A stretch of DNA of 29,121 nt from Rhodocyclaceae bacterium (GTDB taxonomy: Bacteria > Pseudomonadota > Gammaproteobacteria > Burkholderiales > Rhodocyclaceae). The notes beneath the pieces were generated by a model. That model had not been told where the DNA came from and made no database searches. It saw only the letters and a program-made list of their open reading frames with translations. Both the position numbers and the translations under genes were made by a program. Location of the stretch: NCBI GenBank assembly GCA_016791085.1, contig JAEUNN010000345.1:1-29121 (forward strand), written 5' to 3'. Of this stretch, positions 2,808 to 27,703 are shown piece by piece (the stretch's first letter is position 1; each line of letters begins with the position of its first letter).

Positions 2808-3194
2808 GCGCCCAGCCCTAACTCCCCGCCGCGCGGCGCGCCGGGCCCCAATCCCGGCTGCGCCGGAATGTCGAAGCTGAGCGGCCCGGCCGCGCCAGTT
2901 GCCGCGCCCCCACGGCCTGCCCGCCGACCGGCCCGGGTGCCGCCGGGCGGATCGCGCCGCCCATGCCGGCGCCCATGCCGGGCCAGCCGCGCCATCCGTC
3001 TGCCAAACCGCCGCAGCGCGCCATTCCGACTAAAGCCGGTGCCGCAACAGCCGTAATAGCGCGCGACGGCTAGCAACGAAGGGCTCCATGCGGCACGGTC
3101 CGCCGGCCCGCTGCGATGACGCCGTCAAGGCACCGGGAAGCGGCATGCACGCTGCCCGGCCGGCACGTCCAACCCTGCACGAAACACCGCAATC

Positions 3195-5567
3195 ATGCTC
3201 AATCGATTTTCGGTAAAAACCCGCCTGATGGCGCTCATGGTCGCCATCCTTGGAATGATCGCGGTCGGCACGCTGATCGGCCTGGGCGGCATGCGTGCTG
3301 CCAATAACGGCATGCACGTCATTTACGCCGAAAAGCTCGAACCGGCCACCATGGCCGGCCGCGTGCTGCGGCTCATGAACGAAAACCGCGCGCAGGTCAT
3401 GCTGGCGCTGCAGCACAACCCGGAAAACCCGTTTTCCAAACTGCACGACCACGCGGTCGACAAGCACCTCGAAGCGATCGCCAAAAATCGCGACGAAATC
3501 ACGGCCATCGTCGACGTCTTTTCCAAACGCGAACTGAGCGCCGACGAGCGCCACCTGCTCGAACAGTACGCGGCCGCCCGCGCGCACTATGTCAAGGACG
3601 GACTTGCGGTGGCGGTCGCCCACATCCGGGCGAACGACTATATGGCCGCCACGCGCACGCTGCTGGATGTGATCAATCCGGCTTATGCCGACGCGTCGGC
3701 CAAGGCCGAAACCCTGCTGGCGTTCTACGTGGATAGCGCGAAAACCGAAAACACCACGCTGGAAACCGCCTACCGCTGGATATTCGGCGCGGGACTGAGC
3801 CTGGGTCTGGTGGCAATGGTGGTGGTACTGGTGGCCAGTATTTCCATCGCACACAGCATCACGCGCCCGCTCGACCGTGCCGTGCAGGTCGCCGACGCGA
3901 TCGCCGCCGATCGCCTGGACAACCGCATCGACGTGGACGGCCGCGACGAACTGGCCGCGCTGCTTACCGCGCTCGCGCGCATGCAGACCAGTCTTAACGA
4001 GCGCATAGGTGCCGAGCGGGAACTGGCGCGCGAATCGCTGCGCATACGCAACGCGCTGGACAAATGTTCCACCAACGTCATGCTGGCCGACACGGATGGG
4101 CGCATCCTCTATCTGAACGAGGCGCTAGCCGCCACGCTGCGCGCGGCCCAGACCGACATCCGCAAGGATCTGCCGGGTTTCGACGCTGCCACTCTGGTGG
4201 GGCGCAACTTTGACGACTTCCACCGCAACCCGGCGCACCAGCGCAATTTACTTGCCGGACTGAGCGGTTCGCACCGGGCGGAAATTCATGTGGGTGGGCG
4301 CGATTTCCGGCTTACCGCCAATCCGGTCATGGACGCCGGCGGCGTGCGCATAGGCACGGTGCTGGAATGGCTGGACCGCACGCAGGAAGTGGCTATCGAA
4401 AACGAACTGGCGGACGTGCTCACGGCCGCCACGCGCGGCGACTTTTCGCGCCGCCTGACGCTCGACGGCAAACAGGGCTTTTTCCGCGAAGTGGCTTGCG
4501 GCCTCAACGAACTCACGGAACTTGTGGCGCGCGGCCTGCGCGAGGTGGCGGGCGTGCTGAATGCAATCGCGCGCGGCGAACTGAACGAGCACGTGAAGGG
4601 CGAATACGGCGGCACTTTCGGGCAATTGAAGAACGACACCAATGCCACCGTGGACCGGCTGCGCGACGTGGTCGGCCAGATCCAGGAAGCCAGCGAGGCG
4701 ATCAATACCGCCGCGTCGGAAATTGCCGCGGGCAACCGCGATCTTTCCGCGCGCACCGAAGAACAGGCCAGTTCGCTGCAGGAAACCGCCAGTTCCATGG
4801 AAGAACTTAACACCACGGTACGGCAGAACGCGGAAAACGCCCAGCGCGCGAACACGCTCGCTGCCAGCAGCAACGACGCGGCACGGCGCGGCGGTGAAAC
4901 CGTGCATGGCGTGGTGGCGACCATGGGCGAAATCCAGCGCTCCGCGCAGAAAATCGCCGACATCATAGGCGTGATCGACTCGATCGCCTTCCAGACCAAT
5001 ATCCTTGCCTTGAACGCCGCGGTCGAGGCCGCGCGCGCCGGCGAACAGGGCCGCGGCTTCGCCGTGGTGGCTTCGGAAGTGCGCGCGCTGGCGCAGCGCA
5101 GCGCGCAGGCCGCCAAAGAAATCAAGGGACTGATCGCCGCCTCCGTGGACAGCGTGAATAGCGGCGCCAAACTGGTGGGCCAGGCCGGCAAAACCATAGA
5201 AGAAGTGGTCGCCAGTTTCGGCGCGGTGGCGGAACTGGTCACCGACATTAGCGGCGCGAGCCGCGAACAAAGTTCCGGCATAGAACAGGTGACGGCGGCC
5301 GTCAATTCCATGGATGAAGTCACCCAGCAAAATGCCGCACTGGTCGAACAGGCCGCCGCCGCCGCGGAATCGCTGGAAGAACAGGCGCAAACCCTGTCGC
5401 GCGTGGTGGCCATGTTCCGTATCGACCGCGGCACCGGCAATGCCGCGCTTGCCGGCCAGCCGCGCGCCGCAGTCGCGCTGCCACGCACGGCTGCGGCGGC
5501 TGCCGTGAAAGCGCCGCTCAAAGCTGGCGCCTCAGCCCCGGCCAGCGAGGAGTGGGAAGAGTTCTGA
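3195..5567 (+). CDS. Methyl-accepting chemotaxis protein. N-terminal TM helix, periplasmic 4-helix-bundle ligand domain, TM2, HAMP, PAS domain, then MCP signalling domain; C-terminal ...EEWEEF.
   Basis: Hydrophobic segments [21 protein letters not shown] and [24 protein letters not shown] flank a ~170-aa periplasmic region. HAMP-like region follows TM2. A PAS-like block runs [21 protein letters not shown]...[16 protein letters not shown]. The highly conserved MCP signalling core ([24 protein letters not shown]...[40 protein letters not shown]) is present. Alternative start at Met 3228 is possible. Confidence 0.9.
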
Positions 5568-5753
5568 TCGGCCGCGGCTGCGCGCGCGCGCCGCGCTCAA
5601 ACCTGCATTCCGCAGTTGGACGCCTGCGAGGGTGCGGCCGACGCCTGGTCCGGCCAGGCGCCCCGGCCCGCTTGGGGCGGTGCTCCACATCCCGGCCACG
5701 AAATGCGCGCCCGGCCGCCGCCGGCGCACCGCTTGCGGCCTGGCGGCTGCCGT

Positions 5754-6782
5754 TCAGCCGGCTTCCACGATGACGCAGCCCTCGCCATCGCGCAGGCGCA
5801 AATCCACGTCCACGAAACGCCTGACCACCTCGATATTGGTTTGCAGGTGCGAGGAGCAGAGCGCACTCGTGTATCGCCCCCGGCCGGCCAGCGCGAGCGG
5901 AATCACGAGCTGATCGGCAAGGTGCTCCGCCACGGCCGCGCGCGAACGTTCGTAGGTCTGCACGTGTTTCAGCAGCCGCGCCGCGACGGTTTCCGAAGGC
6001 AGGCCGCGCGCGCCGAAACTCGTGAATAGTTCGGTGCAGTGCGCATGGCGCAGTTCCAGCATGAGTGCATTGCCCGGCCCTTCACCGGCCGGCAATTGGC
6101 GTATTTCCTGTTGCGCCTGCGGCTTGCGGCGCGCCACCGCGTCCAGTTCGCGGCGCGCGATTTCGCCTGGAATGCCGGCCACCACGGCAATCGCGGTGGT
6201 CCCCAGCAGTGCGCCGCGCTCCATGAGGCAAAGCGGCTGCAAAGCGCCTTGCGGGCGCACGCGCGCCAGCACGGCGCCGCCGCCGGCCGGATAAAAGCCG
6301 TGGCGCTGCAATTCCACGTCCATGTCCACCCCCATGGTGCGCAACAGCGGCAACCAGGCGCGCAGCAAAAAATCCACCGGCGGCGCCGCGGGGTTGTGCG
6401 TGCCGCCGCTCACCAGCAAGCTGGCCGGCGCGTCGGCGAACCACAGCGCGGGCAACAGGGTTTGCAGCACCAGCGTGCATGAACCGGCGGTCCCGATGGC
6501 AAAGCGGTAATCCCCGCCGCGAATTTTGCCGGGTACGAATTGCAGCGTTTGCGAACCGGGGTGAGCGCCGTCTACCGTCGCGCCGCTTATTGCGGCGGCC
6601 GCCTGCACGGCCGTGAGATGCTGGCGCAACAGGCCGGGTTTGGGCCGGCGCGCGCGTATGCGCTCGATACGAAACGGCCGGCCCGTAATCATGGACAGCG
6701 TCAGCGCGCTGCGCAGGATTTGGCCGCCGCCCTCGCCTTGCGAACCATCCAGATCCAGCGCCTTGTTTGCAGTTTTTTCCAC
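5754..6782 (-). CDS. rtcA: RNA 3'-terminal phosphate cyclase RtcA (342 aa), GTG start
   Basis: Translation ...LDLDGSQGEGGGQILRSALTLSMITGRPFRIERIRARRPKPGLLRQHLTAVQAAA... matches the RtcA N-terminal signature (GEGGGQILR...KPGL). It sits 24 nt downstream of rtcB on the same strand. Reverse-complementing 6780-6782 gives GTG as the start codon. Confidence 0.9.
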   Translation of the reverse strand: MEKTANKALDLDGSQGEGGGQILRSALTLSMITGRPFRIERIRARRPKPGLLRQHLTAVQAAAAISGATVDGAHPGSQTLQFVPGKIRGGDYRFAIGTAGSCTLVLQTLLPALWFADAPASLLVSGGTHNPAAPPVDFLLRAWLPLLRTMGVDMDVELQRHGFYPAGGGAVLARVRPQGALQPLCLMERGALLGTTAIAVVAGIPGEIARRELDAVARRKPQAQQEIRQLPAGEGPGNALMLELRHAHCTELFTSFGARGLPSETVAARLLKHVQTYERSRAAVAEHLADQLVIPLALAGRGRYTSALCSSHLQTNIEVVRRFVDVDLRLRDGEGCVIVEAG

Positions 6783-6806: not shown

Positions 6807-8024
6807 TCAGCCTTTCACACAAACCACCTGGCGCAAGGTATGCACGATTTCCACCAGTTCCCGCTGCGCCCGCATGACCGCGTCTATGTCCTTGTACGCC
6901 ATGGGGATTTCGTCTATCACCGCGGCGTCCTTGCGGCACTCGACGTGGGCGGTCGCGCGCACCTGGTCCTCCACGCTGAAACGGCGCTTGGCGGCATTGC
7001 GGCTCATGCTGCGGCCGGCGCCGTGGCTGCAGGAACAGAACGATTCGGCGTTGCCCAGCCCGCGCACGATAAAGCTTTTCGCGCCCATCGAGCCCGGAAT
7101 GATGCCCAGTTCGCCGCGCCGCGCCGATACCGCGCCCTTGCGCGTGACCAGCAGTTCGGTGCCGAAATGGGTTTCGCGCTGCACGTAGTTGTGATGGCAA
7201 TTCACGGCTTCGACAGCGGCCGTGAAGGGCTTGGTGATCACACTGCGCGTTGCCGCGACCACCGCCTGCATCATGAGCTGGCGGTTCGTGCGCGCATAGT
7301 CCTGCGCCCAGCCGACGGCTTCCACATAGTCGTCGAAATGCGCGCTGCCTTCGCGGAAATACGCCAGATCGCGGTCCGGCAGGTTGGCGATGTGCTCGCG
7401 CATGTCGTCCTGCGCCAGCGTGATGAACAGGCTGCCTATGGCATTGCCGACGCCGCGAGAACCCGAGTGCAGCATGAACCACACGCGCTCGGCCTGGTCC
7501 AGACACACTTCTATGAAGTGGTTGCCGGTGCCCAGGGTGCCCAGGTGCTGGCGGTTGTTGGTGTTCTTGAGGCGCGGGTATTTTTCCGTGATGCGCGCGA
7601 AACCCGGCAGCAACTCGGCCCAGGCCGCATCCACGGCAGCCGGCGGATTTTCCCAGGCGCCCACGTCGCGCCCCTTGCGCGGCGGCGTACGGCCGCAGGG
7701 CACGGCGCGCTCGATGGCGGCGCGCAGCGCGTGCAGGCTGTCGGGCAGGTCGGCCGCCGTGAGCGAACTGCACGCGGCCATCATGCCGCAGCCTATATCC
7801 ACGCCCACCGCGGCCGGAATGATGGCGCCGCGCGTGGGGATCACGCTGCCTATGGTGGAGCCCTTGCCCAGATGCACGTCCGGCATCACGGCGATGTGGC
7901 TGTGGATGAACGGCATGCGCGCGGTATTCATGAGTTGCGCGCGCGCCTCGTCCTCGACCGGCACACCGGCGGTCCACATTTTGATGGGTTTGCCGTGTTC
8001 GACTTCGAGTATCTGATAGTCCAT
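6807..8024 (-). CDS. rtcB: RNA-splicing ligase RtcB (405 aa)
   Basis: MDYQILEVEHG...MPDVHLGKGSTIGSV...GVDIGCGMMA...NCHHNYV...SHGAGRS motifs are typical of the RtcB 3'-phosphate RNA ligase family. Length (~405 aa) fits. Confidence 0.93.
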   Translation of the reverse strand: MDYQILEVEHGKPIKMWTAGVPVEDEARAQLMNTARMPFIHSHIAVMPDVHLGKGSTIGSVIPTRGAIIPAAVGVDIGCGMMAACSSLTAADLPDSLHALRAAIERAVPCGRTPPRKGRDVGAWENPPAAVDAAWAELLPGFARITEKYPRLKNTNNRQHLGTLGTGNHFIEVCLDQAERVWFMLHSGSRGVGNAIGSLFITLAQDDMREHIANLPDRDLAYFREGSAHFDDYVEAVGWAQDYARTNRQLMMQAVVAATRSVITKPFTAAVEAVNCHHNYVQRETHFGTELLVTRKGAVSARRGELGIIPGSMGAKSFIVRGLGNAESFCSCSHGAGRSMSRNAAKRRFSVEDQVRATAHVECRKDAAVIDEIPMAYKDIDAVMRAQRELVEIVHTLRQVVCVKG

Positions 8025-8039: not shown

Positions 8040-8462
8040 TCAGTCCTGAGCGGCAAGCCGCGCCGCTTTGCGCAGCTTGCCTTCGATCTGTGCGCGCCGT
8101 GCGCAAGCCACGCGCCGGCGTTCGGCCGCGCGGCAGGCCGCACAGCGGCGCGCGCTGGTAAATATGCCGCCCTTGGCGACTTCGTACCACCAGCGCTGGC
8201 GTTCGGCGGTCCACAGGCAGTCGGCACCGCAATCCTTGCAGCGGAATGCGACATCCTCGTACCAGCCGCGGCGCGCATAGGCCGGCAGGTCATAACTGTT
8301 GTCGGGTGCGAGCCGTTCCACGCATACCGCCACGCGGCCGGCTCCGGGCCTTGCCGGCACGGCTTGCGGCGGCGCCAGGTCGAGCGCGCGCTTGGCCGCG
8401 CGGCGCCGGCGTGCGGCGCGCAATTCGTCGCGCCGCTGTTTTCCGCTTTTGCAGGTTTTCAT
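8040..8462 (-). CDS. Small basic zinc-ribbon protein of unknown function (~140 aa), located between the SPFH gene and rtcB
   Basis: The ORF is 8040..8486. An internal ATG at 8462 (MKTCKSGKQRR...) is preceded by GGAGG 7 nt upstream, so it is the likely start. The protein has paired Cys motifs (CKDCGADC ... CAACRAAERRRVAC) consistent with a zinc ribbon. It is Arg/Lys-rich, possibly nucleic-acid binding. Host-like codon usage. No recognisable family from memory. Confidence 0.5.
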   Translation of the reverse strand: MKTCKSGKQRRDELRAARRRRAAKRALDLAPPQAVPARPGAGRVAVCVERLAPDNSYDLPAYARRGWYEDVAFRCKDCGADCLWTAERQRWWYEVAKGGIFTSARRCAACRAAERRRVACARRAQIEGKLRKAARLAAQD

Positions 8463-8526
8463 GGTTTTGCCTCCAGCCGCTTGCATTTCAATTCAGGAAG
8501 TAACACCGCGGCGCCCTTGCGCGCGG

Positions 8527-9672
8527 CTAGGGTGCGATCCGCACCAGCCCGTTCAACACCTGGTCCAGGCCGCCGAATACCGAAATGCGGTCTATGCGCT
8601 CGGCGAGTTTTTCCAAGGTTTCCAGCTCTTTGAGCCGCAGCGCGGTGGGGTTGTCCTCCATCACCTTGGCGGTATTGAGCAGCGAGCGCGTGGCCGCGGT
8701 TTCTTCGCGCCGTCGCACCACATTGGCCTGGGCCGCCTTTTCGGCTTCCACCACTTGAGCCAGGATGGTTTTCATTTCCCCGGGCAGCACGATGTCCTTG
8801 ACGCCGGCGCTCGCCACTTCCAGCCCGTAAGCGTCGAATTTGCGGCGCACGTGAGCGCTCACGACTTCGTCGATGAGCTGCTTGTTTTCCAGCAGTTCGT
8901 CGAGGTTACGCGTTCCGACCGCGGCACGCAGACCGAATTGCAGCTCGCGGTACAGGTGCTCGGGCGGCTTGGCGAGCTTGTCGAACGCGCCCAGCACGTC
9001 CGTATAGCGCCAGGTGGCCGCGAAATTCACGCGCAGGCCCACCTTGTCGCGGGTAAGTATTTCCTGTCCGCTCACTTCCATGGTTTGCAGCCGCAGGTCC
9101 ACGAGTTCCACCTGCACCTCGCGGTTGTAGCGCCAGAAGCCCGCCGCACCGGGCGCGAGCAAACCTTCCACCCGTCCATCCACGCGCAGCACGCCGGCGT
9201 GGTAGGCCGGCACCTGCACCAGCAACAGGCCGTTCACGCCGGCCACGGCACGGCCGCGCAGCGCGGGCTGCAACAGGTGCGCCGTAAGCGCCGCCGGCAA
9301 GGCGGCGCCGGCGCGTAAATCCACGCGCTGCAGGCGATGGCGCAGCAAACCTTTCCAGAACACGCGGCGCGAACCCGGCGGCAGCACTTCCACCAGCACC
9401 TCGTTTTCGTAGCGCAGCGCGGCTTCGTCTTCACCGATATCCATGCACTCGAATTCGGCCGCCGCGGTTTCGGCGTCGTGCTGCAGCAGGTAGTCCACGG
9501 TGCTCAGTTCGGTCATGGGCGCATCGAGTTTCCAGACCACCAGCGACAGGCGGTTCATGGGATCGAAAAAGTGATGCCGTCCGGCACCCAGGATGCGTTC
9601 GAAATCGCCATCGCGCAGGAGGGCGCCGCGTTCGTTCTTTTTCACTACAAAGCGTTTCAACATGTTCATCAT
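8527..9672 (-). CDS. SPFH/band-7 (stomatin/prohibitin/slipin-like) family protein (~381 aa)
   Basis: The ORF extends to 9879, but its N-terminal 69 codons are Arg/Pro-rich GC artefact. Start is called at MMNMLKRF (ATG 9672), which has AAGGAAAAGG upstream. The body (...VDLRLQTMEVSGQEILTRDKVGLRVNFAATWRY...GLEVASAGVKDIVLPGEMKTILAQVVEAEKAAQANVVRRREETAATRSLLNTAKVM...) is a typical SPFH domain followed by a coiled-coil. Confidence 0.8.
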   Translation of the reverse strand: MMNMLKRFVVKKNERGALLRDGDFERILGAGRHHFFDPMNRLSLVVWKLDAPMTELSTVDYLLQHDAETAAAEFECMDIGEDEAALRYENEVLVEVLPPGSRRVFWKGLLRHRLQRVDLRAGAALPAALTAHLLQPALRGRAVAGVNGLLLVQVPAYHAGVLRVDGRVEGLLAPGAAGFWRYNREVQVELVDLRLQTMEVSGQEILTRDKVGLRVNFAATWRYTDVLGAFDKLAKPPEHLYRELQFGLRAAVGTRNLDELLENKQLIDEVVSAHVRRKFDAYGLEVASAGVKDIVLPGEMKTILAQVVEAEKAAQANVVRRREETAATRSLLNTAKVMEDNPTALRLKELETLEKLAERIDRISVFGGLDQVLNGLVRIAP

Positions 9673-9925
9673 CCTTTTCCTTGTTGCCGGCGGGCGCCGG
9701 TCCGGCGCGCTTCGCGGGCGGCGCGGGCGGGGAGGTGGGCAGGCGCAGCGGCTTGGGCCCGCGCCGCCCGGCCGCGCTATCGCGCAGCGCCTGGCGCCGG
9801 CCTTCCACCGCCGCGCCCGCCACCCTGCCGCCGACGCGGACCGGGTTGCGGGCCGGACCGGCGGCGGGTGCTTGCGCATGCCGCAGCCGGCGGGTACTGC
9901 TGGACTAGGGTCCTTGCGGACCGCA

Positions 9926-9990
9926 TGGAGCGGGAGTCGAACCCGCGACCGGCCGTTTTCACGGCTGCTCTACCCGACTGAGCTATCCAG
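9926..9990 (-). ncRNA. tRNA-like module (cloverleaf-like, with GAAA-tetraloop hairpin in place of an anticodon arm). Candidate Y-RNA/YrlA-like or tRNA-mimic RNA.
   Basis: Minus-strand sequence: CTGGA-TA-GCTC-AGTCGGGTA-GAGC-A-GCCGT-GAAA-ACGGC-CGGTC-GCGGG-TTCGACT-CCCGC-TCCA. There is a canonical D-arm (GCTC/GAGC, loop with GG) and a canonical T-arm (GCGGG TTCGACT CCCGC). A 5-bp hairpin closed by a GNRA tetraloop sits where the anticodon stem-loop would be. The acceptor stem is only 4 bp (TGGA/TCCA), with no 3' CCA. It is followed by the hairpin GGTCC-GCAA-GGACC (plus 9909-9922). Confidence 0.45.
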
Positions 9991-10040
9991 TGGCGGGCGT
10001 GCCGGGAATCGAACCCGGTAGACCCCGACGGTCACGCCCC
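9991..10040 (-). ncRNA. tRNA minihelix-like module (7-bp acceptor stem + T-arm + discriminator + CCA, no D or anticodon arms)
   Basis: Minus-strand sequence: G-GGGCGTG-ACCGTCGGGGTCTA-CCGGG-TTCGATT-CCCGG-CACGCCC-G-CCA. Acceptor strands GGGCGTG/CACGCCC are perfectly complementary. The T-arm has the consensus TTCGAxT loop. A genomically encoded CCA is present. It lies immediately 5' of the cloverleaf-like module on the same strand. Confidence 0.4.
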
Positions 10041-10165
10041 AACGATCACGATTGCCACGGCGGCATGCGCGGACACGACAGACCGGGATCCGGTTTCCGC
10101 GCACCGGCGGGGTTGCAGAGCCCCGGCCCGTGGGCATTTGCGGCAATGCCGCGATCGCTGTGAAT

Positions 10166-10184
10166 CTAGCGAAGTCCGTGCCAG
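10166..10184 (-). promoter_or_regulatory. Candidate sigma-54 (-24/-12) promoter driving the minus-strand tRNA-like RNA / SPFH / rtcBA operon
   Basis: Minus strand reads CTGGCACGGACTTCGCT: TGGCAC, N5, then TCGCT. This matches the TGGCAC-N5-TTGCW consensus with one mismatch while keeping the -24 GG and -12 GC dinucleotides. It lies in the rtcR-divergent intergenic region, and RtcR is a sigma-54 enhancer-binding protein. A GGCATT-N6-AATGCC hairpin (10133-10150) sits just downstream, at the predicted transcript 5' end. Confidence 0.45.
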
Positions 10185-10322
10185 CGTGGCGCGGCCTACG
10201 CCAGGCAAGCGCAAATCATTGATACAGCTGATGTTTAGTGAAATGCCAGGGATTACGGCCGCGATGCTGCAGGGAGAATTTGCTAGAATTTGATCGCGTA
10301 CTTTATCCATTGATATAAAGCC

Positions 10323-11930
10323 ATGAAATCCACGGTCGCGATCGGTTTTCTCGGCACCACCCTCGATTTCGGCGGCAAAGGCGCGCAACGCTGGGAAAAA
10401 TGGCGCCCGACGGTGGCCCTGTGCCAACAGGAAAATCTGCTCATCCATCGCCTGGAATTGCTGCACGACGCGCGCAGCCGCGGATTGGCCGAGCGCGTGC
10501 GCCTGGACATTGCGGCGGTGTCGCCGGAAACCGAAGTGCGGCGCGTGGAATTGAATTTGCGCGACGCCTGGGATTTCGAGGAGGTATATGGCGCCCTGCT
10601 CGACTACGCGCGCGGCTACGCGTTCGACCCCGAGCGCGAGGACTACCTGATCCACATCACGACCGGCACGCACGTGGCGCAAATATGCTGGTTCCTGCTG
10701 GCCGAGGCGCGCTACTTGCCGGCGCGCCTGGTGCAAACCACGCCGCCGCGCAAACTGGAATCCGATACCAGCGGCACGTATAGCGTGATCGATCTCGATC
10801 TGTCGCGCTACGACCGCATCGCACAACGCTTTGCGCGCGAGCGCGACGCCAGCCTCAGCACCCTGAAAGCTGGCATCGCCACGCGCAATGCGGAATTCAA
10901 TCGCATGATAGAGCGCATCGAACAGGTGGCCGGACGGTCCCGCGCGCCCATGCTGCTGGTCGGCCCGACCGGTGCCGGCAAGTCGTTTCTGGCGCGCCGC
11001 GTCTATGAACTCAAGAAACAGCGCCAGCGCCTGGGCGGACAATTCGTCGAAGTCAATTGCGCCACGCTGCGCGGCGACGCGGCCATGTCGGCGCTATTCG
11101 GCCACGTGAAGGGCGCTTTCACGGGCGCCCAGACGGAACGCCCGGGCCTGTTGCGCGCGGCCGACGGCGGCTTGCTGTTTCTCGACGAAATCGGCGAACT
11201 GGGCCTGGACGAACAGGCCATGCTGCTCAAAGCCGTCGAAGAAAAGCGCTTTTTCCCGTTCGGCGGCGATCGCGAAGCGCAAAGCGACTTCCAGCTTATC
11301 GCCGGCACGCACCGCGACCTGCGCCAGTGGGTGGCGGCCGGGCGTTTCCGCGAAGACCTTTACGCGCGCATCAACCTATGGACTTTCGATCTGCCCGGAC
11401 TGGCCGAGCGGCCGGAAGACCTGGAACCCAATCTCGAATTCGAACTGGCCCGCCACGCCCGCGAACACGGCGAACAGGTGCGCTTCAACCTCGAGGCGCG
11501 CACGCGTTATCTGGATTTTGCAACGTCGGCGCAAGCGCGCTGGCGCGGCAATTTCCGCGAACTGGGCGCATCCGTCACGCGCATGGCCACACTGGCCGTG
11601 GCCGGCCGCATCACCGAACCCTTGGTGCAGGAAGAAATCGGCCGCCTGCGCGCCACCTGGCAGGACGGCACGGCAGCCGACGCCGCGACCCAGGTGCTGG
11701 GAGAAGGCGCGGACGGCCTGGACTGGTTCGACCGCTGCCAGTTGAACGCCGTGATCGAACTATGCCGCGGCAGCAACAGCCTGTCCGATGCCGGACGGCG
11801 CCTGTACGCCATATCGCGCGCCGACAAAAAACAGCCCAACGACGCCGACCGCCTGCGCAAATACCTGGCGCGCTTCGGCCTGGATTTCGAGCGCGCGCGC
11901 GGCCGGAGTGCCGACGCACGAGGTGCCTGA
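10323..11930 (+). CDS. rtcR: Sigma-54-dependent transcriptional regulator RtcR (N-terminal CARF-type sensor domain, central AAA+ sigma-54 activator domain, C-terminal HTH)
   Basis: 535 aa, about E. coli RtcR length. AAA+ motifs: Walker A (PMLLVGPTGAGKSFLARRV), GAFTGA (sigma-54 contact motif), Walker B (GGLLFLDEIGEL), and arginine finger region (FREDLYARINLWTFDLPGLAER). The ~185-aa N-terminus is not a receiver domain and fits the RtcR CARF-like domain. The gene is divergent from the rtcBA operon. Confidence 0.9.
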   Translation: MKSTVAIGFLGTTLDFGGKGAQRWEKWRPTVALCQQENLLIHRLELLHDARSRGLAERVRLDIAAVSPETEVRRVELNLRDAWDFEEVYGALLDYARGYAFDPEREDYLIHITTGTHVAQICWFLLAEARYLPARLVQTTPPRKLESDTSGTYSVIDLDLSRYDRIAQRFARERDASLSTLKAGIATRNAEFNRMIERIEQVAGRSRAPMLLVGPTGAGKSFLARRVYELKKQRQRLGGQFVEVNCATLRGDAAMSALFGHVKGAFTGAQTERPGLLRAADGGLLFLDEIGELGLDEQAMLLKAVEEKRFFPFGGDREAQSDFQLIAGTHRDLRQWVAAGRFREDLYARINLWTFDLPGLAERPEDLEPNLEFELARHAREHGEQVRFNLEARTRYLDFATSAQARWRGNFRELGASVTRMATLAVAGRITEPLVQEEIGRLRATWQDGTAADAATQVLGEGADGLDWFDRCQLNAVIELCRGSNSLSDAGRRLYAISRADKKQPNDADRLRKYLARFGLDFERARGRSADARGA

Positions 11931-12206: not shown

Positions 12207-12720
12207 GTGGGGAACAAGGAGATGCGAGCCATGCCAGGCAAAGCAAAGGAACTCTCGGCCCTGGAAGTCTCCCGGCTTACCTCACCAGGTTTGTACGCGG
12301 CGGGGGTCGTCCCCGGTCTGCAACTCCAAGTGACGGCCACCGGAGCACGGACCTGGGTACTGCGAGTATGGGTCGCCGGCAGGCGCCGGGACATGGGGCT
12401 GGGAGGTTATCCCGCCGTGACCCTGGCCATGGCCCGGGAGAAGGCCCGGGAAGCCCGCGACAAGATCGACAGAGGAATTGATCCGATAGGGGAGCGTCGG
12501 GCCGCTCAGAGCACTCTACGCGCCGCCCGTGGTGCTGAGATCACCTTCGAGAAGGCCGCCCAACAGTTCATTGAGGCCAAATCGGCAGAGTGGCGGAACA
12601 CCAAGCACCGGGGCCAATGGGAAGCCACCCTGTCCACCTATGCCTTCCCCGTGATCGGCACCCTCCAGGTTCGGGACGTGGCCCTGCCTCATGTGGTACG
12701 CATTCACAGCCGCGAGATGC
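12207..12720 (+). pseudogene. Truncated P4-family tyrosine integrase. Only the N-terminal ~170 aa (arm-binding DUF4102-like and SAM-like region) is present. The ORF reads on to 13073 through unrelated sequence.
   Basis: N-terminus ...ELSALEVSRLTSPGLYAAGVVPGLQLQVTATGARTWVLRVWVAGRRRDMGLGGYPAVTLAMAREKAREARDKIDRGIDPIGERR...FPVIGTLQVRDVALPHVV is typical of P4-like integrase N-terminal domains. After ~12720 the translation loses all integrase character. No R..HxxR..Y catalytic-domain sequence exists in any frame before the next gene at 13203, and only ~380 nt are available. Confidence 0.65.
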
Positions 12721-13202
12721 CGGCAAGACGCGGTCACCAGGTGACGGCGCTGCTGCTGGGCGAACGGCTAGTCGGGCTCTACAACGGGTCCACCGGGAAG
12801 CAGGTGAATTTTGTTCGAGCCGATCCGCCGCTGCCCTGGCGACGATGCGACGCAGCCGCCGTAGCGGCGCCTTCGGCTGCCAGCATCGCAGCATTCGCAT
12901 TCACAGCGTGGCCCGCCGTGCTGGTCAGCTTGCCGCTCGCGTTGTTATGCCCACCGTTGGTGGTGACGGCGCGCTTCGCCTGGCGCTGTCGCACGCGGGC
13001 ACAGGTTGACCGTGCACTAGACATCGTGAAAGGCCACGATGTCGTGCCACCGCAACTGCGCCGGGTGAAGTAGCGCGACACGGCAGGCAGCGCGCCGCTT
13101 CGCTCTTTGGCTCCCCGCCGTAATGCGCGGGAATGTCGAAGGAATTGTCAGCTCATACATTTCTCTGATACATTTCCTCCGGAATCGACATTTAGGGTAG
13201 CC

Positions 13203-16200
13203 ATGGCCGACAATCTTTTCGCCGTCTGCGAACCACGCGCCGATGTTCTTCAAGGGGCACTGAAGGAGAGCGACTTCGCTGCTGATCTCTCCCAGGTGCT
13301 CCGCGGCGACGCCCCGGACGAGTACAAGAAACCCGAACTGTTCTTCGCGAACACCTACCCGACCAAGGGCCTGAAGAATGTCCTCAAGCTGGTCGCACTG
13401 CGCGTCCTCGGGAGGCCCGAGCAGGTCGGCGCCATCTTCCGCCTCGATACGCAGTTCGGCGGTGGTAAGACGCACACCCTCATCGGCCTCGCACATGCCA
13501 TGCGTGGTCTCGCCGGCGTCCCGAACGCCGATGAGTTCCTGGAGCCGGCCCTTCGCCCGAGCGAACCGATTCGCATCGCCGCCTTCGACGGCGAAAATGC
13601 AGACCCCACCAATGGACGCAGGTTGAGCGACTCCACCCGCGCATTCAGCCCCTGGGGTGAGCTTGCGTTTGCGCTCGCTGGCGAGGCGGGCTACAGGCTC
13701 GTCGAGCAGAGCGACAAGGAAGGCATCGCGCCCGGCGCCGATACCCTGCGTGAACTCCTGGGCACCGACCCGGCGGTCATCCTCATCGACGAAATCGCGC
13801 CCTATCTGCGCAAAGTCGCGGGTCGGAATACGCAGCGAGCCGGCGAGCAACTGCTGGCCTTCATGACTTCGCTGATGAAGGCGGTCGAGAGCCTGCCCAA
13901 AGTCGCTCTCGTCTTCACCCTAGCCGTTGGCCGTGACGGCAAGGCAACCGATGCCTACAGCCGCGAGACGCAGGACATCGCCGCCTTCTTCGCCGAAGCC
14001 GAGAGCGTGGCTGCCCGCAAGGCCACGGTCATCGACCCCACCGAGGACGACGAAACCGTCAAGGTGGTCTGTCGTCGTCTGTTCACTCGCATCGACGAGT
14101 CCAAGGCCAAGCAGGTCGTTGCGGCCTACAAGGCACTCTGGGACGCGAACCGCGAATCACTGCCCACGCCGCCGGCACAAGACCGTCGCGTGGAGGAGTT
14201 CGAGGCTGGCTACCCGCTGCACCCGGAGTTGGTGAAGCTCCTGACCCAGAAGACCGGCACGCTCGGCAACTTCCAGCGCGTGCGCGGCATGCTGCGGCTG
14301 CTGGCGCGCACCGTGGCGCAACTTTGGCAAACCCGGCCCGCCGATGCCTACGCCATCCACACGCATCACATCGACCTTGGTTTCGAGCCCATCCGCCTGG
14401 AGCTGGTCACGCGTCTCAAGCAGGACATCTACGTGCCGGCCATCAAGGCCGAGATCGCCGGCGTGGACCAGAGCTCCGCGCTGGCGGAGCAACTCGATGC
14501 GGGCGCCTTCAAGGGACTGCCAACCTACGGGTCCTATGTCGCGCGCAGTGTCTTCATGCACACACTCGCCTTCAACGACACCCTGCGCGGCCTGAATGCC
14601 GATGAGCTTCGCTACGCCATCCTCGGGCCGGCGACCGACATCGCCTTCATCGACGACGCCCGCAAGCGCTTCATCACCGACTCGGCATACCTCGACGACA
14701 AACCCGGCGCGCCGCTGCGCTTCCTGGCCGAAGCCAACCTCACGCAAATCATCCGGCGTGAGGAGACCAACGTCGACCGCGAAGAGGCCCGGTCGCGCCT
14801 CAATGCCTACATCCGCGACCTGTTCGCCGGCCCCAATCTAAACCTCGTGCCCTTCGCCGCCGGCCCGCACGACATTCCTGATGACGACGGCAGCGGGCGT
14901 CCCTATCTCGCCATGTTGAGCCACGATGCGGTGCAGGTGGTCGGCGATGCCGTCCGCGTTGATACCCTGGTAGAGAAAATCTTTCTTCACCGCGGGACAG
15001 GCAACGACTGGCGGCACAACCGCAACAATCTGGTGTTTGTGGTCGCCGATGCTTCAGGTATCCCGACCATGAAGGCGCGCATGTTGCGCCATTTGGCGCT
15101 CGAGTCGCTGCGCGTGCCAGGCAAGCTCAAGGACCTCGCCGACTACCAGGTCGCCAAGCTGAGCGAGGAGTTCGAGGTCTCGAAGCAACGCCTCGCCCTG
15201 GCGGTCCAGCAGTGCTACCGCCACATCTTCTTCCCCTCGCGCAATCGCGTCGAAGGCGCAAGCTGTGACCTGGCCCACACGGTGGTGGACATTCAGACAG
15301 CCTCGGACCGGCCGGGCGACGGGCAGAAGCAGGTCGTTACGCAGCTCCAGAACGTCAACAAGCTGCGCCTGCCCACCGACCAGCCGGACTCGCCGGTCTA
15401 CGTGCGCGACCGCACGCCGCTCAAGAAGGGGCAAATCACCACCGCCGCACTGCGCAACGAGTTCCGGCAGGACGCCTCCCTGCCGATACTCGTCGGCGAC
15501 GACGTGTTCATCAAGGGCATCCGCCAGGGCATCGACCAAGGCGACTACGTCTACAAGTCCGGCGACCTGCTGCGCGGCAAGGGGGACCCTCACGCCGAAA
15601 TCAAGGTCGACGAGCAGTCCTTCGTATTCACGACGTCGTACGCCGAAGACCACGGTATCTGGCCTCGCCCTGCGCCCACGCCGGCGCCAGCGCCCGCCGG
15701 CGGTGGCGCCTCACCCACCGGCGGACCCGCCTCGGCGCCTTACGGAGCGCCTGCCCCCGGGCCGGCTCCAGCGGCGAATGAGCCAGGTGTCGTCCAGGCC
15801 GAAGACGTGCTCAAGGCCGCGCTGAACCGCGTCTTCGAACAGGCGCGCAACAACGGTGTGCTTACCCTGGGCTCGATGACCATTCGCCCTTTCGACAAGG
15901 GTGACGCCCTCAAACTGATTCCACTGGTCAAATCGGTTCCAAACACCACCAAGCGCATCGAGCTGGAAGCGTCCTTCGAGACGCCGAGCAAGTCGGAAGC
16001 GAGTGTGGCCTTCAAGGGAGACCTCGACGATGCCGCGCCGCTGAAGGACTACCTCGAACCCCAGTTCCGTGCTGCCAGTGACAGCGACGCGAGCGTCACT
16101 TTCATACTGCACTTCGACCCGCCGCTGGCCGTCCAGGGCGCCAGTGCCGACGGCCTCGTCCAGCGCTTGACGCGTCTCGTGTCGCCAGTCGCTCATGTGC

Positions 16201-16229
16201 TCGCCACTGTCGCCGACAAGAAATCCTGA
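13203..16229 (+). CDS. Large P-loop ATPase, DUF499/COG1483-like (BrxC/PglY-like AAA+ ATPase), ~1008 aa, with a Pro/Ala-rich linker before a small C-terminal domain
   Basis: Start is called at MADNLFAV (ATG 13203). The upstream in-frame extension from 13107 is AT-richer, promoter-like DNA. Walker A: RLDTQFGGGKTHTLIGL. Walker B: AVILIDEIAPYL. The >1000-aa size matches DUF499-family ATPases that accompany DUF1156 methylases. Low-complexity PAPTPAPAPAGGGASPTGGPASAPYGAPAPGPAPA linker near the C-terminus. Non-host codon usage. Confidence 0.75.
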   Translation: MADNLFAVCEPRADVLQGALKESDFAADLSQVLRGDAPDEYKKPELFFANTYPTKGLKNVLKLVALRVLGRPEQVGAIFRLDTQFGGGKTHTLIGLAHAMRGLAGVPNADEFLEPALRPSEPIRIAAFDGENADPTNGRRLSDSTRAFSPWGELAFALAGEAGYRLVEQSDKEGIAPGADTLRELLGTDPAVILIDEIAPYLRKVAGRNTQRAGEQLLAFMTSLMKAVESLPKVALVFTLAVGRDGKATDAYSRETQDIAAFFAEAESVAARKATVIDPTEDDETVKVVCRRLFTRIDESKAKQVVAAYKALWDANRESLPTPPAQDRRVEEFEAGYPLHPELVKLLTQKTGTLGNFQRVRGMLRLLARTVAQLWQTRPADAYAIHTHHIDLGFEPIRLELVTRLKQDIYVPAIKAEIAGVDQSSALAEQLDAGAFKGLPTYGSYVARSVFMHTLAFNDTLRGLNADELRYAILGPATDIAFIDDARKRFITDSAYLDDKPGAPLRFLAEANLTQIIRREETNVDREEARSRLNAYIRDLFAGPNLNLVPFAAGPHDIPDDDGSGRPYLAMLSHDAVQVVGDAVRVDTLVEKIFLHRGTGNDWRHNRNNLVFVVADASGIPTMKARMLRHLALESLRVPGKLKDLADYQVAKLSEEFEVSKQRLALAVQQCYRHIFFPSRNRVEGASCDLAHTVVDIQTASDRPGDGQKQVVTQLQNVNKLRLPTDQPDSPVYVRDRTPLKKGQITTAALRNEFRQDASLPILVGDDVFIKGIRQGIDQGDYVYKSGDLLRGKGDPHAEIKVDEQSFVFTTSYAEDHGIWPRPAPTPAPAPAGGGASPTGGPASAPYGAPAPGPAPAANEPGVVQAEDVLKAALNRVFEQARNNGVLTLGSMTIRPFDKGDALKLIPLVKSVPNTTKRIELEASFETPSKSEASVAFKGDLDDAAPLKDYLEPQFRAASDSDASVTFILHFDPPLAVQGASADGLVQRLTRLVSPVAHVLATVADKKS

Positions 16230-16240
16230 GGAACTAGGCC

Positions 16241-16729
16241 ATGACTACTCGACGCGCGCATGTGGTCGCACTCCCCCGCAAGGCCGCCTCCGCACTGCCG
16301 CACTACGAGCTCCGCGCCAAGCGGCAGCGGGGCTCCGACATGGCCCTCGAAATCTGGCAACTGCCGGCAAGTGCGACGCCTCACATCAAACAGCCCACCT
16401 ATGTGGCGGGGCTGCACGGCCGTAACCTCTCGCTGGTTGAGCATCGCTTGCTGCGCCGCCTGAAGGCCGTGCGCATCAACCTCAACGATTTGCCGGCCAT
16501 CGACGCCTTGCGAGTCCCCATCGACGAGGAACTCGCCATCAACCTTGGCCTGCTTTTCCGTTCCCTGGCGCCGATGCGTAACCGTGACCACATGGCCGCG
16601 GTGGCGGCCGGCATCGAGGTCATGACCAAGGAAGAGGCCGGTTACTGGCTCGGCATGGCAATGCATCGCAAATATCCGCGCCGCGTGCTGATGGCACTGC
16701 GCTTCCTGCTCATCGAACCGACCCACTGA
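16241..16729 (+). CDS. Small conserved hypothetical protein (162 aa) between the ATPase and the COG2865 gene. Positionally equivalent to the DUF3780-type partner of DUF499/DUF1156 systems.
   Basis: GAGGAA 6 nt upstream of ATG. 12-nt gap after the ATPase stop and 7-nt gap before the next gene. Island codon usage. The family assignment is by position only and is not verifiable from sequence here. Confidence 0.45.
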   Translation: MTTRRAHVVALPRKAASALPHYELRAKRQRGSDMALEIWQLPASATPHIKQPTYVAGLHGRNLSLVEHRLLRRLKAVRINLNDLPAIDALRVPIDEELAINLGLLFRSLAPMRNRDHMAAVAAGIEVMTKEEAGYWLGMAMHRKYPRRVLMALRFLLIEPTH

Positions 16730-16736
16730 AGGTGGC

Positions 16737-18482
16737 ATGCGCGAACTGACTGAGGTCCGTGCGCTGCTGACGCGTCTCGACGAGGTCGAAGCGGATGCAC
16801 TGGAATCGCAGGACCTCGACTTCAAGGAGTGGCCCGCCGATCACCGGCATGCCATCCGGCTGGCAGTCGACATGGCGGTCTGCATGGCCAATGGTGGCGG
16901 CGGCACGGTTGTTCTGGGGGTGCGCGACCGTGTGGTCGGGCGCTCCCAGGCGATTCTCGGCGTCCCTGCGACCGCGGACCCGCACCAACTGAAGCGTGAC
17001 ATCTACGAACGCACCGCGCCGAAGCTCACTCCCGAGGTTGTGGAGCTTGCCGTCCCGGAGGGCACCGGGCGCCTGTTCTTGATGCAGGTACATGGCGGCC
17101 TGCCACCGTACACCACTACCGCCGGCGCCGGCACCGTCCGGCGCGGCAAGGACTGTGTGCCCCTCACCGGTGACCTGCGCGACCGCCTGATGGTCGAGCG
17201 CGGCGACTCGGACGTAACTGCCGTTGCCGTCGCAGAGCCGGTCGAATCGCTGCTGTCGGCCGCGGCGCTCGAACGGCTGCGCGACTTGGCCCGCCAGGAG
17301 CAGGCGCCGGCAGACATGTTGCGCAAGTCCGACCTCGATCTGCTCGGCGCGCTCGAAGTTCTGCGTGATGGCCGGCTCACCAAGGCCGGTCTGCTCATCG
17401 CCGGCAATGCCGACGCCATTGCTCGTCACCTGCCTAACTACTCATGGACGCACGAGCGCATGAAGAGCGCCACTGCCTACGTGGACCGCGCCGACGGGCG
17501 CGATACGCGAGAGCTCGCTCTGCCACTCGCCCTGCAGGCGCTCGAATCGCGCATCAACGCCGACAACCCCATCACCACCGTCGAGCACGGCCTGCATCAC
17601 TTCGAATTCCGCGCGTACCCCACGGTGGCGCTGCGCGAGGCGCTGCTCAATGCCTTGTGCCACCTGGACTTGCGGCTCGCCAGCCCAGTGCTGGTCAAGC
17701 AGTTCCCGCGCAAGCTCGAAATCAGCAACCCCGGCGGCCTGGTGGGCGGCATCACGCCGGCCAACATCCTTCACCACCCGCCGCTTGCGCGCAACCCCTT
17801 GCTGGTGCATGCACTGTCGAAGCTGCGCTTGGTGAACCGCAGCAATCTCGGCATTGGCCGCATGTTCGAGGCGATGCTCATCGAGGGCAAGGAGCCGCCG
17901 CTCATCGTCGATGAGGAAAGCGCCGTTCGCGTCGTTTTCAAGCGGCAGGAGACTTCAGCGTCGTTCCGCGAGTTCATCGCCGACGAAGGCAAGGCCGGCC
18001 GGGTGCTGGACGTCGACCACCTGCTGGTGCTGAGCTACCTGCTAGGGCATGGCGAGATCGACACGGCTGCGGCCGCAGAACTCTGCCAGCGGCGTGATGC
18101 CGAGATGCGCGACATCCTCGACGAAATGGTGCAGGTCTACGACTACCTGGAACGCGGCGGCGCCGGGCGCGGCACTTGGTGGCGCCTGAAGCCCGCCTTG
18201 CACCGGCGGCTTGAAGGCGCCGGCCATGCCGAGCGGGACCAGCGCATCGACATCGACGTGGCCAAGACCCGTGTGCTCAACATGCTGAAGCAACGGCAGC
18301 AGCGCGGGCAGGCGGGTCTGTCGAACGCCGAGGTTCGCGAGGTGACCGGCTACACACGACAACAGGTCAACCGGCTGATACACGAACTGGAAGCAGAGTC
18401 TGTGCGCATGGTTGGGCACGGACGCGGTGCCCGATACGAATACGTCGGCTCAGTGCCGGCAAAGAAGACCAAGAGTTCATGA
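16737..18482 (+). CDS. COG2865-type protein: N-terminal AlbA_2/Schlafen-like putative DNA-binding domain + HATPase_c_4-like domain + C-terminal HTH (581 aa)
   Basis: AAGGTGG RBS. The architecture (N-terminal ~120-aa Schlafen-box-like region VRALLTRLDEVEADALESQDLDFKEW..., central region ...LREALLNALCHLDLRLASPVLVKQFPRKLEISNPGGLVGGIT..., C-terminal ...LSNAEVREVTGYTRQQVNRLIHELEAES... HTH) matches the defence-island-associated 'predicted transcriptional regulator with Schlafen-like domain' family. The stop overlaps the methylase start (ATGATGA). Confidence 0.7.
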   Translation: MRELTEVRALLTRLDEVEADALESQDLDFKEWPADHRHAIRLAVDMAVCMANGGGGTVVLGVRDRVVGRSQAILGVPATADPHQLKRDIYERTAPKLTPEVVELAVPEGTGRLFLMQVHGGLPPYTTTAGAGTVRRGKDCVPLTGDLRDRLMVERGDSDVTAVAVAEPVESLLSAAALERLRDLARQEQAPADMLRKSDLDLLGALEVLRDGRLTKAGLLIAGNADAIARHLPNYSWTHERMKSATAYVDRADGRDTRELALPLALQALESRINADNPITTVEHGLHHFEFRAYPTVALREALLNALCHLDLRLASPVLVKQFPRKLEISNPGGLVGGITPANILHHPPLARNPLLVHALSKLRLVNRSNLGIGRMFEAMLIEGKEPPLIVDEESAVRVVFKRQETSASFREFIADEGKAGRVLDVDHLLVLSYLLGHGEIDTAAAAELCQRRDAEMRDILDEMVQVYDYLERGGAGRGTWWRLKPALHRRLEGAGHAERDQRIDIDVAKTRVLNMLKQRQQRGQAGLSNAEVREVTGYTRQQVNRLIHELEAESVRMVGHGRGARYEYVGSVPAKKTKSS

Positions 18483-21457: not shown

Positions 21458-21458
21458 C

Positions 21459-24680: not shown

Positions 24681-24696
24681 CTCGGGCCGACGAGCA

Positions 24697-27527: not shown

Positions 27528-27565
27528 CAACCAACCACTTCCCGGATAGTGGGCTTGGTAGTGGC

Positions 27566-27597
27566 GTAAATAAAAAACGCGGCCTGAATGCCGCGTG
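27566..27597 (-). terminator. Rho-independent terminator for tRNA-Ser (minus strand). It may also terminate the island operon on the plus strand, where the T-run is weak.
   Basis: Stem ACGCGGC/GCCGCGT (27577-27583 / 27590-27596) with loop CTGAAT. On the minus strand it is followed by TTTTTTATTTAC. It lies just inside the island's right end, immediately 3' of the tRNA. Confidence 0.55.
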
Positions 27598-27608
27598 TTT
27601 ACTAGGTG

Positions 27609-27624
27609 TTTGGCGGAGAGGGTG
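27609..27624. repeat. Right 16-bp direct repeat (att-like) TTTGGCGGAGAGGGTG, overlapping the tRNA-Ser 3' end
   Basis: Perfect copy of 12058-12073. Includes the CCA-end and 3' acceptor strand of the tRNA. Confidence 0.6.
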
Positions 27625-27703
27625 GGATTCGAACCCACGTGCCGGTGTTACCCGACCATCCGATTTCGAGTCGGCGCCGTTATGACCGCTTCGGTACCTC
27701 TCC
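27611..27703 (-). tRNA. tRNA-Ser (anticodon CGA), type II with long variable arm, encoded CCA
   Basis: Minus strand: GGAGAGG-TA-CCGAAGCGGTCATAACGG-CGCCGA-CUCGAAA-UCGGA-long variable arm-CGTGGGTTCGAATCCCACC-CCTCTCC-G-CCA. 7-bp acceptor stem. Anticodon loop CU-CGA-AA. T-loop TTCGAAT. ~93 nt. Confidence 0.9.

Follow-up and report, generated by a model that had tools for sequence, protein, structure and literature searches.

The rtcR locus of a Rhodocyclaceae bacterium (contig JAEUNN010000345.1, positions 1 to 29,121; this whole stretch of 29,121 nt is called the window below) contains two tRNA-like modules between rtcR and a divergent minus-strand operon with the gene order SPFH/Band_7 - zinc-ribbon - rtcB - rtcA. 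Comparison with related loci indicates that these modules are real, conserved, structured, non-decoding tRNA mimics and not tRNA remnants. The element is a new member of b7a-tRNA ('band 7-associated tRNA'), a class predicted in 2016 and known here through the description in a citing paper (bioRxiv 10.1101/312249). The modules are embedded in a leader of ~480 nt (~450-500) that, by the same kind of evidence, is a conserved structured RNA consisting of a 5' domain, zero to two modules with a hairpin, and a ~200-nt 3' domain. An earlier note on this DNA, made from its letters alone, had singled out positions 9905-10040; the modules it described there are real, and the structured RNA extends well past them, through the whole leader.

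tRNA-like modules in the window

All module coordinates refer to the minus strand. Module 1 (10039-9991), as read from the letters, is a minihelix with a 7-bp acceptor stem (GGGCGUG 10039-10033 paired with CACGCCC 10001-9995), a small D-like hairpin whose loop contains GG (GACC-GUCGG-GGUC) and a T-arm (CCGGG-UUCGAUU-CCCGG, 10018-10002); the anticodon arm is absent. It ends with G9994, and CCA follows at 9993-9991. Module 2 (9989-9926), the b7a-tRNA proper, is a cloverleaf recognized both from the letters and by the Rfam tRNA model. It has a 4-bp acceptor stem (UGGA 9989-9986 with UCCA 9929-9926), a D-arm (GCUC-AGUCGGGUA-GAGC, 9983-9967), an anticodon-type arm with a 5-bp stem and a GAAA cap (GCCGU-GAAA-ACGGC, 9965-9952), a variable loop of 5 nt and a T-arm (GCGGG-UUCGACU-CCCGC, 9946-9930); U8 and A9 are both present. 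Directly 3' of module 2 is the hairpin GGUCC-GCAA-GGACC (9922-9909), and an apparently single-stranded GCAGUA-CCC motif at 9900-9892 corresponds to (nearly) invariant columns of the alignment described below. Every minus-strand feature listed in the earlier note is found at the position it gave.

Both Rfam models that the note had named as a check were run; the tRNA model passes and the YrlA model fails. Module 2 scores 39.2 bits with the tRNA model (gathering score 29; E = 4.2e-5 in a search of both strands of the entire window). The score for YrlA is 25.8 bits. Module 1 gives 31.4 bits with mascRNA-menRNA (RF01684, a tRNA-like family), under the gathering score of 42.5 for that family. ARAGORN, run on the window, makes no tRNA call at the site of the modules, and a single-sequence fold of 138 nt is no better than that of shuffled sequences (z = -1.46) and does not recover the cloverleaf. 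The support for the modules is therefore comparative, not thermodynamic.

Neither module qualifies as a canonical tRNA by its acceptor end (7 bp, a discriminator and CCA): module 2 is too short, and module 1, which does have 7 bp and GCCA, has no anticodon arm. The acceptor stem of module 2 is 4 bp in the window and 4-6 bp elsewhere, and the sequence continues from it directly into the hairpin. The encoded CCA to which the earlier note drew attention is indeed present after module 1 in the window, but it is not conserved among orthologous loci, and the 4-6-nt linker between the modules is variable as well. This CCA is a local coincidence.

Conservation and linkage to the SPFH gene

A scan of a genome collection with RtcR yielded 80 loci from Beta- and Gammaproteobacteria, and the operon gene content of these was typed by tblastn with the operon proteins of the window. 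An nhmmer search with 181 nt of the window alone found the element in 37 loci (E < 1e-4), always ~300-450 nt upstream of rtcR and on the opposite strand. Two covariance models were used, R1 for the tRNA-like module with its hairpin and R2 for the 5' domain of the leader. R1 matches 35 of the 38 SPFH-type loci with 71-120 bits, the window with 92.9 bits over 9885-9992, and also loci outside its training set, among them L044 (108 bits) and L003 (93 bits) as well as L089, L085 and L084, treated below. In none of 38 loci that lack the SPFH gene does R1 match the stretch between rtcR and rtcB. The only strong matches located elsewhere than between rtcR and SPFH are genuine tRNAs: two tRNA-Lys(uuu) genes a short way downstream of rtcR in L023 (5647-5815, minus strand), and tRNA-Pro genes in L035 and L040.

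The number of modules per leader varies from zero to two. In Pseudomonas soli, P. donghuensis and P. entomophila (L053, L055 and L080) the modules are degenerate or lost, and SPFH and the leader domains that flank them are retained; in one further locus (L077) module 1 has been lost. These three Pseudomonas loci also have an FMN riboswitch downstream of rtcR (5615-5756, 6814-6957 and 5529-5670, respectively), probably a matter of shared clade synteny.

Loci without the SPFH gene are of two kinds. In the E. coli type rtcR is next to rtcBA; the others have a Ro60/TROVE gene (e.g., L029 and L040) together with YrlA and YrlB, both above the Rfam thresholds, with YrlA scores of 73-107 bits. The RNA described here tracks SPFH, so that SPFH plus tRNA-like RNA and Rsr plus YrlA are alternative occupants of one operon slot. 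In Andreprevotia lacus (L016) at least six T-arm-only matches occur in a row at 23-1325 on the minus strand, and in addition there is one YrlA above threshold at 473-600; the series suggests a Y-RNA-like module array upstream of rtcR.

Covariation and the missing decoding function

The alignment used for the modules (A1) comprises 35 sequences aligned with MAFFT, and the control was to slide the pairing partners by 1-3 columns. In the cloverleaf and hairpin 95.0% of the cells are paired, compared to 36-46% after sliding. Compensatory changes occur in all five pairs of the anticodon-type stem, three of the six acceptor pairs and three of the five hairpin pairs; the hairpin itself is found 3' of module 2 in nearly all loci. 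The D and T stems are nearly invariant, as in real tRNAs. Positions of the tRNA core and elbow, assigned via the Rfam tRNA alignment, are likewise (nearly) invariant: U8, A14, G18G19, A21, G53, T54-Psi55-C56, A58 and C61; R15 and Y48 are kept as well. Conservation across rtc loci and covariation of the stems had been named beforehand as the test of this element, and it is borne out both by the 35 of 38 SPFH-type loci and by the compensating stems.

The least conserved part is the anticodon-type loop: many loci have GAAA, GCAA or UUCG there, and others a loop of 7 nt. In L005 module 2 (~3079-3203) has an expansion of ~18 nt in the anticodon-type arm that can lengthen the stem; this arm evidently tolerates changes in length. 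When ARAGORN is applied to the orthologues, the calls are Val, Met, Leu, Ile, His, Arg or undetermined. Such unrelated 'anticodons', along with the tetraloops, indicate a tRNA-shaped RNA with no decoding role. The judgment of the earlier note that neither module is a functional tRNA therefore holds, with conserved and covarying stems on one side and arbitrary 'anticodons' of the orthologues on the other.

In 23 betaproteobacterial loci an acceptor helix of 5-7 bp is kept in module 1 with 16 different 3'-strand sequences, and in 20 of the 23 it lies 13-17 nt upstream of the T stem. The mean contiguous Watson-Crick run in these loci is 5.8, compared to 4.0 for shuffled strands. This test was used in place of an earlier one (best 7-mer, G-U allowed; 6.1 pairs, with 5.4 in controls) that lacked power in GC-rich sequence. 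The slot of module 1 holds a second full cloverleaf in most Pseudomonas loci (R1 positions 2-71, 43-62 bits).

A larger structured leader

Between rtcR and the SPFH gene lie 610-725 nt in 36 of the 38 SPFH-type loci. In the other two the measured distance was ~1.0-1.1 kb, since tblastn there matched the SPFH protein only from residue 16 onward. An alignment of 36 loci shows that this intergenic region can be aligned from the promoter to an A-rich ribosome-binding site (RBS), and RNAalifold predicts a structured domain on each side of the modules. The 5' domain (10136-10059, minus strand) has six helices, P1-P6, with the conserved blocks GCCCACGG, GCCGGUGC and CAUGCCGCC. Compensatory changes are seen in 19 of its 23 predicted pairs, and 94.3% of cells are paired (36-52% after sliding). 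R2 scores 94.7 bits on the window and 51-81 bits on held-out SPFH-type loci; a search of 24 non-SPFH loci gave no match below E = 0.1.

The 3' domain (9891-9686, minus strand) is formed by nested long-range helices and ends ~5 nt before the RBS. The helices are Q1 (9891-9886 with 9691-9686), Q2 (9863-9855 with 9703-9695) and Q4 (9837-9828 with 9730-9721), and a GNRA-capped hairpin lies between Q1 and Q2. RNAalifold finds 23 of 28 pairs compensatory, and in 22 of 27 both partners change; the paired share of cells is 92.2%, with 31-46% after sliding. These helices recur in the minimum-energy fold of the window itself, where the whole leader has z = -3.45, and in every aligned locus the closing helix stops a few nucleotides before the RBS. 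The domain structures were derived from the same alignments in which the pairs were counted, and this flatters the comparison with slid controls somewhat. The counts of compensated pairs and the matches to held-out loci are the stronger evidence for the leader domains.

A permissive Rfam scan of 9600-10400 gave only tRNA, mascRNA and a weak YrlA match, and the flanking domains match no family. An all-against-all covariation scan for additional long-range or pseudoknot pairs was unusable, swamped by clade-specific G/A and C/U changes. The large leader RNA appears not to be catalogued, and both this leader and the variable module number may be new. The leader RNA is linked to an apparently soluble subfamily of slipin/SPFH proteins, in the RNA-repair loci of both Beta- and Gammaproteobacteria and, as recognizable pieces, in distant lineages.

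Distant homologues

HMMER searches of 1.84 billion representative proteins return many full-length homologues of the SPFH protein with 35-56% identity. Five distant ones were examined, and all four for which upstream sequence exists have a gene-free gap of 440-1040 nt directly before Band_7. In L085 (gene order rtcB-rtcA-gap-Band_7) this gap contains a tRNA-like element and hairpin with an R1 score of 75.8 bits. A 12-bp long-range helix, found by eye, closes a region of ~190 nt just before the RBS of the same locus; its sequence is unrelated to that of the window helix. In L084, where rtcB is not nearby, the tRNA-like element scores 42 bits and is followed by a hairpin as in L085. The AT-rich L086 (2057-2779, minus strand) has a match to the tRNA model upstream of Band_7 and, by eye, a T-arm minihelix just upstream of that. 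Here Band_7 adjoins a PTS_2-RNA gene (KptA/Tpt1 RNA 2'-phosphotransferase) in place of rtcB, which suggests that the SPFH-RNA pair can partner with other RNA-repair enzymes. In the distant, low-GC L081 the 5' domain is matched by R2 with 31 bits, and a T-arm hairpin can be recognized by eye. Since the tRNA-like element lies directly upstream of Band_7 in L085, L084 and L086, the RNA follows the SPFH gene and not rtcR. A scan of viral contigs gave one SPFH homologue, on a contig that ends before its upstream region.

Operon, promoter and neighboring genes

The genes around the RNA are those the earlier note had assigned, with Pfam matches to RtcR, Band_7, zf_Tbcl, RtcB and RTC. On the plus strand, rtcR (10323-11930) encodes a CARF/RtcR domain and a sigma-54 AAA+ activator (Pfam RtcR 285 bits, Sigma54_activat 169 bits), and the product scores 840 bits with the NCBIfam equivalog RNA_repair_RtcR (cut-off 650). 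The first gene of the minus-strand operon (8527-9672) encodes an SPFH/Band-7 'slipin' (Pfam Band_7 93.5 bits), whose homologues are named 'slipin family protein' in the source records. No N-terminal membrane segment is apparent in this protein when its sequence is judged by eye. A Foldseek search with its AlphaFold2 model returns stomatin, HflK/C and prohibitin (E 1e-13 to 1e-9); the predicted fold thus matches those of cage-forming SPFH proteins. It is followed by a small, very basic, Arg/Lys-rich treble-clef zinc-ribbon protein (8040-8486; Pfam zf_Tbcl 42.2 bits), the RNA ligase gene rtcB (6807-8024; Pfam RtcB 431.8 bits) and the RNA 3'-phosphate cyclase gene rtcA (5754-6782; Pfam RTC 268.9 bits, NCBIfam RNA 3'-terminal phosphate cyclase 454 bits), all on the minus strand. 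The TROVE/Ro60 domain was not found among the 15 window proteins scanned, in agreement with the remark in the note that no Ro60/Rsr is encoded there. PADLOC gives the SPFH and zinc-ribbon proteins no match to a defence system.

A sigma-54-type site, TGGCACGGACUUCGC = TGGCACGGACTTCGC, with GG at -24 and GC at -12, is located at 10183-10169 on the minus strand. It fits the pattern except at one position and does not reach significance by itself within the window. The motif CTGGCAC-N5-TCGC is, however, present in all aligned SPFH-type loci and at least 90% conserved. With the spacing of GG and GC, this conservation and the adjoining divergent rtcR all in place, a sigma-54 promoter under RtcR control is predicted. 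A conserved inverted repeat of the type TTATC-N5-6-GATAA (10303-10318, strand not set), visible as conserved columns of the 36-locus intergenic alignment, adjoins the start of rtcR. It has the same place in all SPFH-type loci and may be an RtcR upstream activating site or a site for integration host factor. No terminator-like site was found between the RNA and the SPFH start codon.

On its other side rtcR adjoins a defence island (12207-27703) that ends at tRNA-Ser(cga) (27611-27703, minus strand) and serS. The island begins with a truncated integrase (12207-13073; Arm-DNA-bind_3 and Phage_int_M). An Hma-like system in it consists of an HmaC-like DUF499 ATPase (13107-16229), an HmaB-like DUF1156 methylase (18479-21457) and an SNF2 helicase (21228-24680). 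The island also encodes a Schlafen/AlbA_2 protein (16737-18482) and a short prokaryotic Argonaute (pAgo) pair, Aga REase-PNTD (24697-26079) and a class I pAgo (26079-27527).

Relation to known RNAs

The b7a-tRNA prediction was reportedly made in a 2016 paper of Burroughs & Aravind (Nucleic Acids Res 2016; 44:8525). In the citing account (bioRxiv 10.1101/312249), b7a-tRNA is credited to that work, described as lacking experimental validation and presumed to be redundant in function with YrlA. That account portrays a predicted non-coding RNA that strongly resembles a tRNA, is located by a Band-7 gene and RtcB, and alternates with Rsr/YrlA, and the window shares this plan. Each feature that it gives for the class (tRNA-like, Band-7-adjacent, RtcB neighborhood) is found in the window. 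Compared by way of the same description, the window differs in having a tetraloop for an anticodon loop, a second, reduced minihelix, and a three-domain leader of ~480 nt. No family for b7a-tRNA was found in Rfam, and no description of an RNA of the window type was found otherwise in the open literature.

Reports on Pseudomonas aeruginosa can be tied to the same RNA family. PA4581.1, annotated tRNA-Arg4, lies between rtcR and the rtc cluster and lacks CCA; by quantitative reverse-transcription PCR its level is about half that of canonical tRNAs (PMC13637947). It ranks with the most strongly up-regulated genes of a late cystic-fibrosis isolate (PMC8743555), and an SPFH protein, PaFlo8, is embedded in the P. 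aeruginosa rtc locus (PMC13086221). The link is provided by a P. aeruginosa locus found via its slipin protein (L089), which has the corresponding position and gives R1 106.4 bits, R2 73.1 bits and an ARAGORN call of tRNA-Arg(acg). PA4581.1 has one module with a 7-nt loop, in contrast to the two modules of the window and the 4-nt loop of module 2. Databases treat PA4581.1 as a tRNA gene, and this is contradicted by the arbitrary 'anticodons' of its orthologues.

A further parallel is YrlA, the bacterial Y RNA that occurs with Rsr (RF02553; Chen et al. 2014, PMC4201824). The two RNAs have in common that they are tRNA mimics of RtcR-controlled rtcBA operons in the same rtcR-rtcB slot, with conserved T- and D-arm sequences. 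In contrast to YrlA, the RNA of the window has an SPFH partner in place of Ro60 and the normal, not the permuted, order of tRNA arms, and a YrlA-type terminal stem was not detected by the model. Because the modules hold the slot of Rsr and YrlA, the analogy is apt. The earlier proposal of a Y-RNA/YrlA-like candidate survives in this respect and fails as an identification, given the SPFH partner and the tRNA arm order.

Two eukaryotic likenesses can be mentioned. mascRNA (RF01684) has the same plan as module 1, with a 7-bp acceptor, a small D-like hairpin, a T-arm, and an anticodon arm that is reduced or absent. This is a eukaryotic family, and homology is implausible for that reason; the likeness is one of form only. 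The vault particle is composed of the major vault protein (MVP), which has an SPFH-like shoulder domain, and vault RNAs. What it shares with the window is a small structured RNA with a genetic tie to a soluble protein of the SPFH superfamily. Rabbit MVP is listed in the Foldseek results for the SPFH model (E 1e-8, TM about 0.3), a match no better than generic SPFH matches, and the vault analogy is not established by it.

Function and alternative explanations

The explanation preferred here, with a probability of about one half, is that tRNA-shaped RNAs of the b7a type are released from the leader and serve as trans partners of the SPFH protein in repair by RtcB and RtcA. RNA damage would activate RtcR and so turn on the promoter, as is established for the RtcR of Salmonella and E. 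coli. The leader, to judge from covariation, would fold into its three domains, and the modules would adopt the tRNA-like L-shape: the nucleotides of its core and elbow are preserved, with variation left to the anticodon loop and the acceptor end. Enzymes of tRNA processing, e.g., RNase P, could then excise the modules as stable small RNAs. There is precedent in the M. smegmatis YrlA, which according to PMC4201824 is cleaved by RNase P and receives CCA. The released RNAs would join a soluble SPFH oligomer, perhaps with the basic zinc-ribbon protein, and scaffold or direct RtcB and RtcA, which is the role proposed for YrlA with Rsr.

Several observations weigh against this proposal. For the window organism, both the release of the modules and their partnership in trans are inferred. 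PA4581.1 is not induced together with the Rtc proteins (PMC13637947), a poor fit to simple co-transcription from a sigma-54 promoter. Modules have been lost from the three Pseudomonas loci noted above and P. aeruginosa has a single one, so that they are dispensable in some lineages; the flanking domains persist there and must have a role of their own. The acceptor stem of module 2 has only 4-6 bp, and a signal for a free 3' end is absent. A broader proposal, short of probable and still a serious possibility, is that the modules are the visible part of a large RNA that acts as one functional unit and is not already described. This RNA would then be the RNA component of an SPFH-based ribonucleoprotein.

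The main rival, possible and on present evidence rather unlikely, is that the leader acts chiefly in cis: its fold would control the stability, processing or translation of the SPFH-rtcBA mRNA, with the modules as sensor or processing sites. For example, the leader could sense the capacity for tRNA processing or RNA repair through its tRNA-like modules. The position of the leader, between the sigma-54 promoter and the RBS with no intervening terminator-like site, suits this explanation. So does the covariation of the flanking 5' and 3' domains, at least as good as that of the modules, and so does the persistence of these domains where the modules have decayed (L053, L055, L080). A closing helix ends near the RBS in every locus, and the unrelated 12-bp helix of L085 occupies the same place. 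The A-rich RBS is, however, unpaired in the consensus structure, and an obvious sequestration switch is therefore absent. The RNA follows Band_7 even where this is not the first gene of the operon (L081, L085), which better fits a partnership with the gene product, and the P. aeruginosa orthologue accumulates as an RNA at levels comparable to tRNAs (PMC13637947). The cis and trans explanations are compatible and not mutually exclusive.

It is doubtful that the modules serve instead as a decoy for tRNA-targeting nucleases, as a source or mimic of the tRNA-fragment ligand by which the CARF domain of RtcR is activated (control by feed-forward or feedback), or as a substrate model for RtcB/RtcA. 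They do retain a tRNA body, Salmonella RtcR has been reported to respond to tRNA halves that terminate in a 2',3'-cyclic phosphate, and competitive inhibition of an anticodon nuclease has been raised as a possibility for YrlA (PMC7790460). The anticodon-type loop, variable and often a tetraloop, argues against a specific decoy role, since it cannot mimic a particular target of an anticodon nuclease. RtcR is 67-80% identical across loci of the SPFH, Rsr and plain rtcBA types, so that there is no sign of a CARF domain specialized for this RNA, and what the RNA is strictly linked to is the SPFH gene, not rtcR. Even less credence can be given to a divergent YrlA or Y RNA, for which the same type of operon and the weak Rfam match (E = 0.0038 in an 801-nt scan), pairing the T-arm of module 1 with the D-arm of module 2, might speak. 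The covariation is that of two modules in tRNA order, each with its own acceptor stem, and not of a T-then-D topology. Membership was rejected on the score of 25.8 bits, far from the gathering score of 69 and from the 73-107 bits of sibling loci, and on the failure to find Ro60/TROVE among the 15 window proteins scanned; the observation in the earlier note that the architecture is distinct from YrlA is upheld by the same score. Functionless relics, either decayed tRNA genes or the trace of an integration site, are the least credible explanation. The silence of ARAGORN in the window and the truncated integrase and defence island beyond rtcR would fit such an origin, but other loci carry the element without a defence island. 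Decay was rejected as an explanation in view of more than 40 genomes (two proteobacterial classes and distant lineages) in which the element keeps its position and orientation, the compensatory changes and the invariant tertiary nucleotides.

Implications

Operons for repair by RtcB and RtcA are widespread, and their substrates and accessory factors are poorly understood. To our knowledge, the version with an SPFH protein and a tRNA mimic has never been studied experimentally. A mimic that is conserved, covarying and tied to SPFH, in the slot used elsewhere by Rsr and YrlA, makes it more credible that RNAs shaped like tRNAs are cofactors of bacterial RNA repair in general. The finding also corrects genome annotation, in which such elements are labeled tRNA-Arg, tRNA-Met, etc. 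The leader is a candidate for a new Rfam family and offers testable parts for genetics and biochemistry. If it does function as one large RNA with the SPFH protein, it would be the conceptual equivalent in bacteria of Ro/Y-RNA or vault particles and not a simple pseudo-tRNA.

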